From: a virus
Taxonomy: Duplodnaviria; Heunggongvirae; Uroviricota; Caudoviricetes
Virus record (IMG/VR): IMGVR_UViG_2711768167_000005
Location: 1 to 4,280 of that record
Direction: 5' to 3' (one strand)
DNA length: 4,280 bases
Positions 205 through 4,246 of this stretch are shown piece after piece. The notes under the pieces were generated by a model. That model was not told where the DNA came from. It was given only the letters and a program-made list of their open reading frames with translations, and did no database searches. The translations under genes and the position numbers were made by a program. Position 1 is the stretch's first letter. Each line of letters begins with the position of its first letter.

Positions 205-420
205 TCATTTCACTTGTTCCCCTTTGATACGAATGCCCGCGGCAGCGCAGGCCTGTTCCAGTTCAGCCACCCTCCGCTCACTCGCATCCGGAGCATCAGG
301 CACAACTTTAATTGCCACGGCATGCGACATCGGAGTGATCGCAGGAACCGGTCCTGATAACAAAACACGCAACTGCATCCTGGCCTTCTCCAGGTTCAAC
401 ATTCCACTGATTTTTCTCAT
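205..420 (-). CDS. Hypothetical small protein (71 aa), last gene of the minus-strand array
   Basis: ATG at 420..418 and TGA at 207..205. A GGAGGA Shine-Dalgarno sits about 9 nt upstream on the minus strand (rev-comp of about 430..436). Composition is protein-like. No family recognised. The overlapping plus ORF 131..526 is low-complexity and judged spurious. Confidence 0.4.
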   Translation of the reverse strand: MRKISGMLNLEKARMQLRVLLSGPVPAITPMSHAVAIKVVPDAPDASERRVAELEQACAAAGIRIKGEQVK

Positions 421-468
421 GACCGGCGCTCCTCCAGTTCTGCAATGCGCTTTTTTGCTGCTTCCGGC

Positions 469-882
469 TCAATCATCATTTTCTTCAATTGTTCTTCTTT
501 CATTGATGCCAGTGTTTACAGCCTGACAAGCTTGTTTAAGCACCCAGTCAACGGCGTCTTTCCATGCTCCCGTTTCAACTGGCGGATTTTCACGTTTAAC
601 CTGCTCATAGAAAGCTACGGCTTTAACCAATCCATTCGGCGCTGGCGGGACGGCGTAAAGGGGAATCCCGCGTCTTCCATAAGAAAACTCGTTATGACCG
701 TTATATTCACGACCATCTTCGTCATCACACATCCACGCCACCGGTTCCGCTTCCAGCGATGCCAGTACAATCCGTGCCAGTTCTTCCGCTTCTTCTGCTG
801 GCAGTACAACGTTGCTACCCGGTCCGTATGTTTCGCGCCACTGCTTGATTGTCAGCAGTCGCTCTTTGGTTATAGTGGTCAT
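469..882 (-). CDS. Hypothetical prophage-type protein (137 aa); paralog A1 sharing its N-terminal 47 aa with the 1315..1713 product
   Basis: ATG at 882..880 and TGA at 471..469. GAGG upstream overlaps the stop of the preceding gene. The N-terminus MTTITKERLLTIKQWRETYGPGSNVVLPAEEAEELARI is near-identical to that of the 132-aa protein; the C-terminus is unrelated. Confidence 0.65.
   Translation of the reverse strand: MTTITKERLLTIKQWRETYGPGSNVVLPAEEAEELARIVLASLEAEPVAWMCDDEDGREYNGHNEFSYGRRGIPLYAVPPAPNGLVKAVAFYEQVKRENPPVETGAWKDAVDWVLKQACQAVNTGINERRTIEENDD
741..882. repeat. Direct repeat copy 1 (142 bp, about 93% identical to 1572..1713)
   Basis: Manual alignment at an offset of 831 bp gave 10 mismatches in 142 bp. 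Covers the 5' end (first 47 codons) of the 137-aa gene. Confidence 0.85.
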
Positions 883-892
883 TTCTTATGCC

Positions 893-1090
893 TCAATACA
901 CAAAATCTGTTTTAAATTCATGGTTACATTCTGGACAGCATGTTTCGTAACCTTTTATTTCTTCACATGCCTGTTTTGCTCCAGAAAATTCCCAGAAATC
1001 TGGATCACAAAGCAGATCGAAATTGTGACCGCATTTTGGGCATTCGGTATCAAGTGACAGATTCCAGTAAGCAGTGGTGTTTTTATCCAT
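893..1090 (-). CDS. Small C4 zinc-ribbon protein (65 aa)
   Basis: Start trimmed from the track ORF 893..1132 to the ATG at 1090..1088, which follows the upstream TGA (1094..1092) by 1 nt and is preceded by AAAGGAG. Motifs C17-P-K-C20 and C52-P-E-C55 (CxxC...CxxC). TGA at 895..893. Confidence 0.55.
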   Translation of the reverse strand: MDKNTTAYWNLSLDTECPKCGHNFDLLCDPDFWEFSGAKQACEEIKGYETCCPECNHEFKTDFVY

Positions 1091-1091
1091 A

Positions 1092-1313
1092 TCAGTCTCC
1101 TTTACCCGCTGCTTTCTCCTGCTCTTTAGCAAGCCGCTCCGCTTCTCTGAAATCCCAATCCACTCGATGTGCTATATCAATTGCAGAACGCACGGTCCGT
1201 TCAATTAGCGTGTCCAGATTATCAATTGTCATTGCCATATCTGGATTGCGAGATAAAATCTCCGCCCTCTGAATCTGCCAGTTGTTGCAGGTTTCAAGTA
1301 ACGAGTTAGCCAT
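1092..1313 (-). CDS. Hypothetical small charged protein (73 aa), predicted helical
   Basis: Start trimmed from the track ORF 1092..1523 to the ATG at 1313..1311, preceded by AAAGGAAAG and separated by 1 nt from the upstream stop (1317..1315). The longer N-terminal extension would overlap the 132-aa gene out of frame. Confidence 0.55.
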   Translation of the reverse strand: MANSLLETCNNWQIQRAEILSRNPDMAMTIDNLDTLIERTVRSAIDIAHRVDWDFREAERLAKEQEKAAGKGD

Positions 1314-1314
1314 A

Positions 1315-2225: not shown

Positions 2226-2226
2226 A

Positions 2227-2826
2227 TCACTCTCCTTTGGTGCGAATGCCAGCGACGCGTGGCACATTAACTTCCACGATGCGCACATTTGGTTTGTACA
2301 TCTCAATCGCTGTCAGCCAGTCAGCTCCTGTCATGCGCTTTTCCGCATCGCCATTAGTCCATAGAACCGGCACACCAATAGCCTTCATCGCGATTTCTAT
2401 TTCCCCGGCAATGGCGCTTTTTCCGCAACCAGTAAAACCAGATACAACGACAAGAACTTCGCCTTTGGCTGGTTTTATTTCCCGTGCTTCCAGTTCTGCA
2501 ATACGCTTACTCCCATCCGCGATTACTCCCTCGTAATATTCACGCTGCTCCTTGAGTTTTGATTTTGCTGCCTCCAGTTCGTCCAGTAGTGCAATCACAT
2601 CGGGATCACTATCATCAACTACTGTTACGCGTGATTCTTCATAATGTTCGTCTGCAAAAGTACGCCCTATCTTAAAATATCCGTCATCACCCTCACCGGA
2701 ACAGGCATAAACAACATGTGCTCCAGATATGCGCTGTATTGACATTTCCTCGCCACAAACAGAGCATTCAGGTACTGGCTTAGGTGAATAACGTTCCCGT
2801 AGCGCCTGATAATCAATCTCGCTCAC
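2227..2826 (-). CDS. Ea22-like mosaic protein (199 aa) with N-terminal CxxC, a central coiled-coil-like segment and a Walker-A-like motif
   Basis: GTG start at 2826..2824 with GGGAGG 7 nt upstream. The N-terminus MSEIDYQALRE matches the N-terminus of the 70-aa ORF at 3031..3243. Walker-A-like GFTGCGKS at residues 130-137 (nt 2416..2439) follows a hydrophobic strand EVLVVVS. TGA at 2229..2227. Confidence 0.6.
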   Translation of the reverse strand: MSEIDYQALRERYSPKPVPECSVCGEEMSIQRISGAHVVYACSGEGDDGYFKIGRTFADEHYEESRVTVVDDSDPDVIALLDELEAAKSKLKEQREYYEGVIADGSKRIAELEAREIKPAKGEVLVVVSGFTGCGKSAIAGEIEIAMKAIGVPVLWTNGDAEKRMTGADWLTAIEMYKPNVRIVEVNVPRVAGIRTKGE

Positions 2827-3034
2827 TGGTTGCCTCCCAGCAAATTTGTCTTATATAAGAACTGTTAACGCGCTTTACTTTCCCGTCGAACTCCAGTTTC
2901 TTTAGACGACGCAAAACGTATGCCGTTTTGAGTGTGCGATATTTATCCCTAAGCCAGTTGGTCACGACGTAAGTCATACAGCGCCCGTGTTCTTCCAACA
3001 CCCGAACTATTTCTTCGTCGGTTGGCTTGCTCAT
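2813..3034 (-). CDS. Small putative winged-helix DNA-binding protein (73 aa)
   Basis: ATG at 3034..3032 in an ATGA overlap with the upstream stop. Overlaps the downstream GTG start by 14 nt. The segment TYVVTNWLRDKYRTLKTAYVLRRLKKLEFDGKVKRV has the helix-turn-helix plus basic wing pattern typical of wHTH regulators. Confidence 0.5.
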   Translation of the reverse strand: MSKPTDEEIVRVLEEHGRCMTYVVTNWLRDKYRTLKTAYVLRRLKKLEFDGKVKRVNSSYIRQICWEATSERD

Positions 3035-3243
3035 TTTGTCGCTCCTTCAGCTTTCCCGAACAGTTGAGGGTGTGCTGTCTTCAGCTTCGCATTCTCAGTT
3101 GCCAGCGTCTCGCATTCATCCAGCAGAGCCAGCACAATCGATGGTTCTACCAGCTCATAGAAAAGGTCCGTGTCAAATCCCCAGTCGTCATGCATTGCCT
3201 TTTCTGCCGCCTCACGCAGCTCCTGATAGTCAATTTTGCTCAT
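3031..3243 (-). CDS. Ead/Ea22-like N-terminal module protein (70 aa, acidic)
   Basis: ATG at 3243..3241 in an ATGA overlap with the stop of the 58-aa ORF. The N-terminus MSKIDYQELREAAEKA resembles the N-terminal signature of Ead/Ea22-like prophage proteins as I recall it (unverified), and also the start of the 199-aa protein. Confidence 0.55.
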   Translation of the reverse strand: MSKIDYQELREAAEKAMHDDWGFDTDLFYELVEPSIVLALLDECETLATENAKLKTAHPQLFGKAEGATK

Positions 3244-3416
3244 TCATCACCCCACTCATCGCAATATGCTTCGACAGGCGTTTTTCCAGCTTCATAGTCA
3301 TCGCGCCATGCTTCGGCATCGGCGGCACTTCCACCACGTAACCCGGCATAGTCCATTAACACTTCATGCCATTCTTCAAAACTGGCGTTATATTTAGTTG
3401 AACCAAAATCAGTCAT
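3240..3416 (-). CDS. Small highly acidic protein (58 aa), not in the supplied ORF track
   Basis: Translated by hand: MTDFGSTKYNASFEEWHEVLMDYAGLRGGSAADAEAWRDDYEAGKTPVEAYCDEWGDE. ATG at 3416..3414 is preceded by GAGG, which overlaps the TAG stop of the 82-aa gene. TGA at 3242..3240 overlaps the next ATG. It has 15 Asp/Glu against 4 Lys/Arg. Confidence 0.5.
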   Translation of the reverse strand: MTDFGSTKYNASFEEWHEVLMDYAGLRGGSAADAEAWRDDYEAGKTPVEAYCDEWGDE

Positions 3417-3422
3417 TTTGCT

Positions 3423-3671
3423 CTACCTCAGTCTCATATTGTTGTATCGCTCGTGACTCAACAGCGCCCAGGTTTGTCCCCGGTTCCTGCTCAGTAACCG
3501 CCAGTCCGGACCAACATTAATCTTGATATACCCGAATCCCTTTTTCTTCAGTTCATGGTAATTCCTCTCCCCGCGACGAAACCGGTTAACGAGGTCCACC
3601 GCCTTCCGCTGGCAGGCTGGCGGTACCCCGGGACAGCTCAGCAGACCGGGAACCAGCTCTTTCATCTTCAT
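3423..3671 (-). CDS. Hypothetical small basic protein (82 aa)
   Basis: ATG at 3671..3669 in an ATGA overlap with the stop of the 192-aa gene. AAGGAA lies about 7 nt upstream. TAG at 3425..3423. No family recognised. Confidence 0.5.
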   Translation of the reverse strand: MKMKELVPGLLSCPGVPPACQRKAVDLVNRFRRGERNYHELKKKGFGYIKINVGPDWRLLSRNRGQTWALLSHERYNNMRLR

Positions 3672-4246
3672 GACGCATTCCTTACCTGTTCAGGGCTTCC
3701 GGCTGTATGCCACCCCCTGACAGCATGCCAGACGGCCGTGAGCGGGATATTCATCTGCTCTGCACAGAGCATCATGACGTCCAGCCCGTCAGCGCTCTCC
3801 ACATCGTTAATCCCTGCTTTCTGCCACAGTCTCCAGAGTTCAGAGTTTTCATCATCGCTGAGTGTGATACCCCGCCCCGGGCGCACATCAATTCCTGAAA
3901 TACGGCGCCGTGCTGCAACGTCCACACTGGAAAGGCCAAAATAAAACGCCATGAGTTCAATCGATCCCCCCAGTGCAAGAGCGCGATCGATTCGCTGCAG
4001 GCGTTTCTGTTCAGTCCTGGCCTGCTGCAGCATGCGTACAAGGTTATTGTGGTTAATATCCAGCCGCAGCACTGACACCTCTGAATTTGACAGATAGTGA
4101 ATTTCCTCAATACTCAGCCCCTGCAGCATCTGCATTTCTTCCCGGGAAAGCCCCAGCGCTTCACAGCGGCGCAGATAGCCACTTTTGAGATCCATCACCA
4201 GCTGCATCAACAGTCCGTTGGTGGCCTGTGACAAGTTATTACTCAT
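3668..4246 (-). CDS. Hypothetical protein (192 aa), first complete gene of the array; possibly DUF2857-like
   Basis: ATG at 4246..4244 with a strong SD GGAGGTGAGGT (rev-comp of 4247..4257). TGA at 3670..3668. The domain assignment is a weak recollection and is unverified. Confidence 0.6.
   Translation of the reverse strand: MSNNLSQATNGLLMQLVMDLKSGYLRRCEALGLSREEMQMLQGLSIEEIHYLSNSEVSVLRLDINHNNLVRMLQQARTEQKRLQRIDRALALGGSIELMAFYFGLSSVDVAARRRISGIDVRPGRGITLSDDENSELWRLWQKAGINDVESADGLDVMMLCAEQMNIPLTAVWHAVRGWHTAGSPEQVRNAS

Follow-up and report, generated by a model that had tools for sequence, protein, structure and literature searches.

Phage-type gene cassettes in a slot of an integrative and conjugative element at pheV of Escherichia coli

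Where does a tightly packed, one-strand array of small genes belong when some of its members resemble the accessory genes of lambdoid phages? This question is raised by the first 4,280 nucleotides (nt) of the IMG/VR virus record IMGVR_UViG_2711768167_000005, assigned to the Caudoviricetes; this whole stretch is hereafter denoted the window. A first-pass annotation, made from the letters alone, had read the array as the early-left accessory region of a lambdoid prophage. Here we conclude that the window very probably represents the middle of a long one-strand operon within an integrative conjugative element (ICE), where a slot holds a cargo of recombining phage-type cassettes that would be expressed with the ICE operon.

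Positions 118-4280 of the window are 99.97% identical to an ICE of ~81.7 kb bounded by attachment (att) sites, and the full array is present in 25 of the 5426 complete E. coli chromosomes, at 99.5% identity over positions 44-4280; chickens and turkeys were the source of many of these 25 strains. In strain VTB96815v, one end of the element holds tRNA-Phe (pheV) together with genes for a tyrosine integrase, a TraI-domain relaxase and a UvrD helicase; at the opposite end, ~81.7 kb away, ParA is accompanied by a 51-nt repeat that is 92% identical to the 3' part of tRNA-Phe. The genes around the array are ordered parA, two small genes, dnaB-PI (for a DnaB helicase of the SPI-7 type), parB, DUF2786, DUF2857 (g1), ParE-like (g2), the array, the STY4528-family gene, PFL_4669, topB (topoisomerase III) and ssb. 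Elsewhere, the element carries PilL2, TraD, the full TIGR037xx set for mating-pair formation of type G (MPF-G), iha, an ardA cluster, and a type IV pilus resembling that of SPI-7, with a shufflon. Among the transfer genes annotated by the Prokaryotic Genome Annotation Pipeline (PGAP) are those of the TIGR03745-03759 families, a conjugative transfer ATPase, TraD, TraG-N and a TraI-domain protein. The identities of ParA, dnaB-PI and MPF-G/TraD/TraI were taken from the PGAP annotation; for the flanking genes, NCBIfam profiles matched TIGR03764 (E=1e-113, ParB of the PFGI-1 class), STY4528_fam (4e-117) and TIGR03761 (6e-71). The element is an ICE of the SPI-7/PAPI-1/pKLC102/ICEclc family and is ICEEc2-like; ICEEc2 is an avian E. 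coli ICE of the same family that inserts at pheV/pheU (PMC11537424, PMC6761156).

About 2.3 kb of the array, in five segments, is 92-99% identical at the nt level to Shiga toxin (Stx) and other lambdoid phages and to P1-like phage-plasmids, and 239 phage records share parts of the window. Such similarity would be expected of an early-left (ea/b-like) accessory operon of a lambdoid prophage, transcribed from the promoter pL; two of the genes, g4 and g6, belong to the Ead/Ea22 family, and the block from the 3' part of g6 through g7 to the 5' part of g8 is 97% identical to Stx phages, in which the homologs sit between exo and xis. However, no phage or plasmid record covers 80% or more of the window, and all 25 full-length matches are flanked by ICE genes, within an att-bounded element that carries TraI, TraD and MPF-G. 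Furthermore, g1 and g2 are ICE core genes, and neither exo/bet/gam nor int/xis was found beside the array, from 20 kb upstream to 75 kb downstream. We consider a prophage operon at this locus highly improbable. What stands of the first-pass reading is the type of the genes, as judged by their identity to DNA of the exo-xis type; the prophage locus does not stand, the flanks in the 25 genomes being those of an ICE, which is the context that the annotation itself had named as speaking against its proposal. The phage recombination and integration genes that it suggested looking for are missing beside the array, and the att repeat that was found delimits the ICE. Nor are all of the ~12 genes accessory, as it had supposed, given that g1 (DUF2857) and g2 (ParE-like) are parts of the ICE backbone. 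Two other contexts were considered and rejected: a plasmid, as no plasmid covers at least 80% of the window, and the chromosomal core, as the array occurs in only 25, and the backbone genes (DUF2786 and DUF2857, at 70-100% identity and always chromosomal) in only 119, of the 5426 E. coli genomes.

The architecture of the array was described correctly at the outset. The region 205-4246, in which about 12 small genes on the minus strand had been proposed, contains 12 uninterrupted open reading frames (ORFs) on that strand, denoted g1 to g12 in the order of reading, and a damaged 13th. From g1 to g12, stop and start are separated by -4, 6, -4, -4, -14, 1, -4, 1, 1, 10 and 48 nt. ATGA overlaps thus account for four junctions and TGA-N-ATG for three, a 14-nt overlap for one, and gaps of 6-48 nt for the other three, an exact match to the junctions originally listed; a Shine-Dalgarno-like purine run precedes every start. 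The Ea22-like N-termini noted in the first-pass annotation were likewise borne out by Pfam PF13935, which scored 40.7 bits for g4 and 92.5 bits for g6, against a cut-off of 27. The coding density is 98.3% over 205-4246, and ORFs of at least 50 amino acids (aa) cover 94% of the minus strand, compared with a mean of 29% and a maximum of 52% in shuffled sequences. PHROG profiles matched 11 of the 12 ORFs, with E-values from 1e-15 to 1e-123. The same gene models were obtained by independent calling in other assemblies (82, 58, 70, 73, 199, 171, 132, 73, 65, 137, 71 and 73 aa), and g1, g2 and g7 are under strong purifying selection, with ratios of nonsynonymous to synonymous substitution rates (dN/dS) of 0.02-0.10. 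The products of g3, g4, g6 and g8-g11 are acidic, with isoelectric points (pI) of 4.1-4.9. A search with Rfam on both strands at a relaxed threshold found no RNA family, the only match being a chance one to a snoRNA (E=0.8).

The damaged 13th gene, g13 (1-208, minus strand), starts at position 208, with a further ATGA overlap. In the reference locus (L001 24073-24294), it encodes 73 aa, matches phrog_5994 (E=7e-26) and is the last cassette before the STY4528-family gene. Positions 1-117 of the window are G-rich and degraded, with a run of 11 G on the minus strand and many changes to G. Compared with the reference ICE, there is one mismatch in 118-4280 and 21 in 44-117, and positions 1-43 lack similarity to any of the 25 reference genomes. 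This decay is probably an artefact of the read or contig end (poly-G) rather than biology; because of it, the reading of g13 is corrupted after about residue 30.

To what extent is the array a stable part of the ICE? We compared the interval between the DUF2857 and STY4528-family genes in five E. coli variants and in 18 loci from other genera that were fetched with the DUF2857 alignment. In 14 of these 18 loci (from Kluyvera, Enterobacter, Pantoea, Erwinia, Edwardsiella and others), the slot is ~366 nt long (347-403) and holds the ParE-like gene alone, and in two more loci from other genera, L019 and L025, it measures 590 and 695 nt, again with the ParE-like gene. Longer slots form a series: 1.1-1.2 kb in L008 (of the NC101 type, with two added genes), L009 and L010; 2.5-2.7 kb in L006 and L007, with intermediate arrays; 3.2 kb in L005, with an array of the window type lacking one unit; and 3.9 kb in the locus of the window (L001), with the full array. 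The added genes are always on the strand of the operon, and an Ead/Ea22-like gene is annotated in all five occupied E. coli slots examined. Thus, the slot has a demonstrable empty state and graded occupancy. Because g3-g13 fill what is an intergenic spacer of ~115 nt in most relatives, they represent accreted cargo. Judging by the sequence comparison, g1 and g2 are the conserved ICE backbone, and g3-g13 are cargo that was apparently added in the E. coli/Salmonella lineage.

The first of the two backbone genes, g1 (3668-4246, minus strand), encodes a 192-aa DUF2857 protein, a homolog of BisC, which matches Pfam PF11198 with E=5e-66 over positions 2-173 of 174, along with a weak match to FlhD. 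It is present in all 23 related loci, with dN/dS of 0.02-0.05. BisC, which carries DUF2857, pairs with the ParB-domain protein BisD to give the master activator of transfer competence in ICEclc, where the operon reads alpA-parA-shi-bisD-bisC-orf96323-orf95213-inrR (PMC7423338). The second gene, g2 (3423-3671, minus strand), encodes a basic protein of 82 aa with a ParE-like domain (PF24732, E=1.6e-19; dN/dS 0.07-0.08) and is always located directly 3' of the DUF2857 gene, either with a 4-nt overlap or ~17-60 nt apart. Searches of solved structures by sequence with g1, g2, g6 and g7 yielded no significant match.

The ParE-like toxin domain of g2 and its constant position directly downstream of g1, combined with the frequent occurrence of toxin-antitoxin modules on ICEs, would fit an addiction module formed by g1 and g2, or by g2 and a neighboring small gene, to which the array would be incidental. 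But no small antitoxin gene lies upstream of g2; its neighbor there encodes the 192-aa DUF2857 protein, a BisC-like regulator subunit rather than an antitoxin of the ParD/Phd type. Moreover, in the 14 minimal slots no other small gene is available as the antitoxin, and no solved ParE structure matches g2 by sequence. An addiction module therefore seems quite unlikely, and we return to g1 and g2 as backbone genes that border the cargo.

The five phage-like segments show how the cargo is composed. Positions 2822-3055 (g5) are 99.1-99.6% identical to positions 5001-5234 of the P1-like phage-plasmids L003 and L004; 2227-2508, the C-terminal half of g6, is 96% identical to the Ea22-like gene of a P1-like plasmid; 1569-2253, which takes in the last 27 nt of g6, the whole of g7 and 145 nt from the start of g8, shares 97% identity with Stx phages and P1-like elements; 863-1107 (g10) is 92.6% identical to a gene of a P1-like plasmid; and 732-882, the 5' end of g11, is the fifth, at 93%. 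In the Stx1 phage AU5Stx1, the Ea22-like gene, the g7 homolog and a DUF551/EaA gene follow each other in order between exo and xis/int, in the pL operon, the homologous block lying downstream of N, cIII, kil, gam and bet.

Within the array, a 145-nt direct repeat (family D1, 93%) has one copy at 738-882, the 5' end of g11, and the other at 1569-1713, the 5' end of g8. L005 differs from the window type by an exact indel of 831 bp that ends within this repeat and covers the rest of g8, g9 and g10. The middle of g6 has been replaced in frame, and measures 214 nt here but 286 nt in L005. Where the phage-identical segments end, conserved modules are found, from which we infer that cassettes pass between the ICE and phages or phage-plasmids of the same cell through homologous recombination at the borders of modules. 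For lambdoid mosaicism, this mechanism has long been proposed.

The gene junctions themselves are among these modules. The TGA-N-ATG junctions between g6 and g7 (2222-2240), g8 and g9 (1310-1328) and g9 and g10 (1087-1105) share an 18-nt sequence, AAAGGA(G/A)A(G/C)TGATATGG, in which the AAGGAG Shine-Dalgarno site of each downstream gene is made up of the final codons (K-G-E/K/D) of the gene before it. The same junction is also found at L029 8586, L002 3090 and L005 9809, and it occurs in Stx phages. The Ea22 proteins have a layout of a short N-domain, a coiled coil, a variable C-terminal domain and a terminal K/RGE (PMC7093339, PMC10834534), and the significance of the K/RGE motif has been called unknown (PMC7093339). 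As read from the junctions here, the motif may be the Shine-Dalgarno site of the translationally coupled downstream gene. The complete Ea22 layout is seen in g6, whereas g4 has the N-module and a short helix only.

The cargo genes, all on the minus strand, combine such modules in different ways. The first cassette, g3 (3240-3416), encodes a very acidic protein of 58 aa (pI 4.1) that matches the C-terminal part of the 143-position profile phrog_519 (E=4e-22), and it is missing from the relatives with an empty slot. The next gene, g4 (3031-3243; 70 aa), is the short member of the Ead/Ea22 family (PF13935, E=4.6e-10); its product ends in GATK, and its first ~25-55 residues are common to ten PHROG families. 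It is followed by g5 (2813-3034), which encodes a basic protein of 73 aa (phrog_9799, E=2e-43).

The full Ea22-type protein is encoded by g6 (2227-2826; 199 aa), which starts with GTG and ends in ...GIRTKGE (PF13935, E=4.6e-26). In an AlphaFold2 model, the N-domain (residues 1-72, zinc-ribbon-like) and a helix or coiled coil (75-114) are confident, and the C-terminal domain has a predicted local distance difference test score (pLDDT) below 50. The C-terminal domain is P-loop-like, with a Walker-A-like GFTGCGKS. A role of g6 as an NTPase was considered and rejected, the matches to proteins of the adenylyl-sulfate kinase type being weak and insufficient. An alignment of g6 relatives displays two alternative N-terminal modules, an indel-rich coiled coil and a near-invariant C-terminal domain, with the terminal ...GIRxKGE kept; the family comprises at least 6,885 clusters at 90% identity, and the best-scoring clusters listed are nearly all single-member.

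Downstream of g7, g8 (1315-1713; 132 aa) consists of an N-module of the EaA/DUF551 type (48 aa) joined to a different C-terminal part. Its N-terminus matches phrog_60, 3323, 660 and 5117, and its opening 145 nt share 93-97% identity with the beginning of the phage EaA/DUF551 gene. The next two genes lie in the 831-bp unit of gain and loss: g9 (1092-1313; 73 aa; phrog_10585, E=1e-42), which is missing in L005, and g10 (893-1090; 65 aa), which encodes an acidic protein with two CxxC pairs (zinc ribbon) that matches phrog_4173 (E=9e-28), with only weak matches to the YnfU family and the Rad50 zinc hook. A second copy of the EaA-type N-module, joined to another C-terminal part, forms g11 (469-882; 137 aa; phrog_660, E=3e-43), in which residues 41-130 match positions 254-356 of phrog_250, the C-terminal region of a long Ea22-type PHROG. 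The ORFs of g6, g7, g8 and g11 are intact despite pseudogene flags in RefSeq, and g7 has full-length phage homologs of 171 aa.

A short ORF (417-503; minus strand) of 28 codons, MKEEQLKKMMIEPEAAKKRIAELEERRS, lies partly over the end of g11, in a different frame, and terminates in an ATGA overlap with g12. It has no PHROG or Pfam match, and its KRIAELE segment is encoded within a 20-nt repeat (D5; 433-452 and 2489-2508, 95%) shared with g6; by this token, recombination appears to have left it behind as a relic of an Ea22 coiled coil. The last complete gene, g12 (205-420), encodes a basic protein of 71 aa, seen in the ICE context only and without a match in Pfam, PHROG or NCBIfam. It is 87-98% identical at the aa level in the ICE variants L005-L007, and the exact protein occurs in 2754 index blocks, of which the six places listed are all the same ICE context.

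The cassette g7 (1710-2225, minus strand) encodes a basic protein of 171 aa that is predicted to be an MmcB-like nuclease of the PD-(D/E)xK type. Its predicted structure (pLDDT 84) has the restriction-endonuclease-like fold; D27, E37, D40, E53 and K55 are invariant among its relatives, and the catalytic block aligns to that of 3dnx (SPO1766), with 22% sequence identity and a profile match of E=0.17. Thus, g7 shares with the MmcB-like nucleases, represented by 3dnx, the fold and the D...(D/E)xK residues, but the family sequence models fail on it: no Pfam or NCBIfam model matched at E<=0.01. Its phage neighbors are annotated as 'MmcB family DNA repair protein'. The relatives of g7 form 316 clusters and are confined to mobile elements of Enterobacterales. 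Compared with the phage copy, g7 has dN/dS of 0.10, is full length and retains all catalytic residues.

At 95% or greater nt identity and full length, g7 is present in 134 phage records, mostly of Stx-converting phages, and on 290 plasmids, of which 185 are non-mobilizable (mostly of P1 phage-plasmid size) and 108 conjugative. On the IncI2 plasmid pSC20141012 (NZ_MG267386.1; L028 9014-9529), a g7 homolog with 96% nt identity closes a row of genes on one strand (hypothetical, TraL, three hypotheticals, g7). Between this row and the divergently oriented mobC and relaxase genes lies an intergenic region that contains strong inverted repeats and direct repeats of the CCCACA type. Judging by this arrangement, the mobC-proximal region is probably the origin of transfer (oriT), which would put g7 on the leading side of IncI2 plasmids; besides the gene arrangement, we base this placement on the 'leader operon' of RP4. 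A nick motif of the RP4 type was not found in this intergenic region. In some Salmonella genomes, the g7 domain is fused behind an Ead/Ea22 N-module in a single ORF of 240-245 aa (P0093, P0097 and P0109). Given these fusions, the nuclease can itself be an exchangeable C-terminal 'payload' of Ea22-type scaffolds.

How would the cargo be expressed, and to what end? The overlaps between genes run on upstream of the array through the ParE-like, DUF2857, DUF2786, parB and dnaB genes and the two small genes after parA. A simple scan detected no promoter or terminator sites on the sense strand inside the array, and the first strong sense terminator comes after topB. As the cargo has no evident signals of its own, its transcription and translation would go along with the rest of the ICE operon and hence, by analogy, take place when the element is switched on. 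In the scenario that we propose, cassettes would enter and leave the slot by homologous recombination with co-resident phages and phage-plasmids, and the boundaries of exchange would be the Ea22 N-terminal module, the KRIAELE coiled-coil segment, the KGE-stop-Shine-Dalgarno junction and the 145-nt EaA N-module. Once in place, they would be expressed by read-through and translational coupling with the ICE operon, and, if the analogy with the bisDC operon of ICEclc holds, would come on when the element does. Their products would comprise coiled-coil scaffolds of the Ea22 type, whose C-terminal domains are exchangeable, together with an MmcB-like nuclease, a zinc ribbon and several small acidic proteins. 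In phages, the homologs belong to the genes that come on first after infection (PMC10834534); most likely, the cargo would likewise act soon after activation or entry and would target host DNA transactions or competing mobile elements, in the way that its phage counterparts do from pL.

Several observations weigh against this interpretation. The promoter and terminator scan was a crude consensus search. PADLOC, run on g1-g10, detected no defence system and only a meaningless weak DrmC match for g1, and none of the cassettes matched a characterized anti-defence protein, nor was a recognized ardA, psiB or ssb present inside the array, as assessed with general annotation and PADLOC models, a search with an anti-defence-specific library not having been made. 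In this ICE, unlike ICEclc, a DUF2786/DUF7168 gene is inserted between parB and g1, and no alpA or bisR is annotated upstream of parA, so that regulation of the ICEclc type would be an extrapolation. Finally, PGAP flags g6, g7, g8 and g11 as partial or frameshifted (L001 21455-23533, corresponding to window positions 748-2826), and g12 has dN/dS of 0.45, with few changes; together with the relic ORF at 417-503, this suggests that some cassettes may be decaying.

Taken further, the same signs could mean that g3-g13 are non-functional, slowly decaying fragments of prophage exo-xis regions that were captured by illegitimate or homologous recombination and persist as passengers because of their place inside an essential ICE operon. 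The PGAP calls are made against longer family members; in g4, g8 and g11, the N-module is followed by a truncated or foreign C-terminus; and the empty slots indicate that the cargo is dispensable in most relatives. Wholesale decay is hard to reconcile with 12 of 12 ORFs being uninterrupted, with start, stop and Shine-Dalgarno site kept at every junction, with a complete and constrained g7, or with the single base difference from a complete reference genome over 118-4280 and the near identity to 25 genomes. The abundance of the exact g12 protein also argues against it, as does the stepwise occupancy of the slot, always co-oriented with the operon, which is unlike random junk. We regard this alternative as unlikely and retain the reading of the cargo as cassettes expressed with the ICE operon.

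Another alternative is that the array is the leading region of the ICE, the first DNA to enter the recipient, with anti-defence or establishment genes on the transferred strand. Plasmid leading regions are rich in one-strand anti-defence genes (PMC11541004), and here, the orientation is strictly one-strand, with ssb (~9 kb away) and topB downstream on the same strand. Most of the cargo products are small and acidic, their phage counterparts are expressed early (PMC10834534), and the g7 cassette, found on 108 conjugative plasmids, ends a same-strand row beside the probable oriT of an IncI2 plasmid. Conversely, the recognizable anti-restriction gene of the ICE, ardA, belongs to a separate cluster at a distance of ~47 kb, none of the matches was to a known family of anti-defence or defence, and the IncI2 oriT, where the RP4-type nick motif was not found, was itself deduced from the gene arrangement. 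On balance, a leading region in the strict sense is rather unlikely.

A broader proposal is that the slot could be the ICE counterpart of both the phage exo-xis region and the plasmid leading regions, that is, a dedicated 'early-gene' hotspot drawing on one common cassette pool, the cassettes being deployed, on activation or entry, to manipulate host DNA transactions or rivals. This pool, of Ea22-type scaffolds with swappable C-terminal effector domains, the MmcB-like nuclease and EaA-type proteins, would circulate among lambdoid phages, P1-type phage-plasmids, IncI2 plasmids and ICEs. Under this proposal, the ICE-borne Ea22-like proteins might even tune the lysis-lysogeny decision of resident Stx prophages. 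We put this forward as a speculative and, on present evidence, rather improbable generalization of the preferred reading, in which the slot is loaded by recombination and expressed with the ICE operon.

Several features of the ICE outside the array deserve mention. The 'tRNA-Ser' annotated in RefSeq at the ParA end (L001 14191-14268) consists of the 51-nt att repeat of tRNA-Phe joined to sequence unrelated to it, and no tRNA was recognized there by ARAGORN. In E. coli 2015C-3121 (NZ_CP027340.1; L007 1-2418), a TraI-domain gene and a tyrosine integrase gene, on the same strand as ParA, lie directly upstream of it at 343 nt, and no tRNA is annotated in the space between; on sequence grounds, this is the arrangement that would be expected across a joined attP or between tandem copies of the ICE. 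A separate cluster of the ICE, ~47 kb from the array (L027 23472-28307; NZ_CP178648.1, about 892.5-897.3 kb), encodes ArdA, an LPD29-domain protein and a DUF1281 protein, with a remnant of a DNA methyltransferase, and is a more conventional candidate for the anti-restriction or leading region of the element.

About 1.6 kb past the low-coordinate end of the window, 3' of the STY4528-family gene, a PGAP 'hypothetical protein' (L001 25821-26395) consists entirely of 16 tandem units of 36 bp (89% match), each holding the palindrome TGTTGGCA-G-TGCCAACA. In otherwise near-identical ICEs, this 'ORF' varies between 157 and 312 aa (~13-26 copies). By its sequence, the array of repeats is less like a protein-coding gene than like a sopC-type centromere or iterons serving the ParB of the ICE or the STY4528 protein. 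The PFL_4669/TIGR03761 protein encoded downstream of the cassette array (L031 9000-9725 and equivalents) matches Pfam AcaB (PF08900). AcaB is an activator of the transfer genes of IncC plasmids; if this role applied here, the regulators of this ICE family would link to circuitry of the AcaB/AcaCD type.

The analysis corrects a plausible mis-annotation, in which prophage-like gene content lies inside a conjugative element that is frequent among avian and extra-intestinal pathogenic E. coli. Recombination with phages resident in the same cell, at conserved modules on gene boundaries, appears to fill the slot, which speaks directly for a single pool of 'early' accessory cassettes common to ICEs, lambdoid phages, phage-plasmids and conjugative plasmids. 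Because prophage induction in Stx phages, and with it the production of Shiga toxin, is affected by their exo-xis genes, expressed copies borne on an ICE could matter for the interplay of phages and ICEs in pathogenic E. coli. The ICE family and the phage Ea22 family are already known, and the sequence is present in public genomes with automatic annotation. In the literature that we consulted, we found no description of this slot, its empty and filled states, its filling of the exo-xis type, or the four-way sharing of g7.

Among known elements, this ICE has its backbone genes and their order in common with the ICEEc2/SPI-7/PAPI-1/pKLC102-PAGI-2/ICEclc family; its resemblance to ICEEc2 is one of family and insertion site as described. 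Most relatives in other genera lack the phage-type array between the ParE-like and STY4528 genes. With the bisDC operon of ICEclc, the element shares the DUF2857 gene, an upstream gene of the ParB family, a weak resemblance of the FlhD/FlhC type, and downstream co-directional genes of the STY4528 and PFL_4669 (InrR) types. It differs in that dnaB-PI is inside the operon, and in that the ParE-like gene and the cassette array have no counterpart reported for ICEclc.

Compared with the anti-defence islands of plasmid leading regions (PMC11541004), the array is similar as a one-strand row of small genes near ssb, but those islands include known anti-defence genes, whereas none was recognized here and ardA is elsewhere in the ICE. 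Islands of the PAPI/PAGI/LESGI type contain GI-Hotspots 1-11, the boundaries of which include DUF3275-DUF2859, TraG-helicase and TraU-TraC (PMC12629846). These hotspots likewise are discrete slots with conserved boundary genes and variable, co-oriented content in the same broad ICE family; the gene pairs just named differ from those of the present slot, and the terms parB, DUF2857, topoisomerase and ssb are absent from that paper. The slot described here is filled with small genes of the phage-early type and not with recognizable defence systems.

The closest parallel to the cargo is the exo-xis region of lambda and the Stx phages (ea22, orf60a-63, ea8.5 and EaA/DUF551). The array is not located between exo and xis; there is no prophage and, in the annotation, no N, nut or pL nearby, and it is embedded in an ICE operon instead. 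Relative to the exo-xis genes, g4, g8 and g11 are shortened or chimeric versions, and the pro-lysogenic activity reported for Ea22 has no obvious meaning for an ICE. The Ead/Ea22 genes and the tight packing on one strand are the same in both, and the order of genes in Stx phages, Ea22-like, 171-aa nuclease-like and EaA-type, is that of the array, at 97% nt identity.

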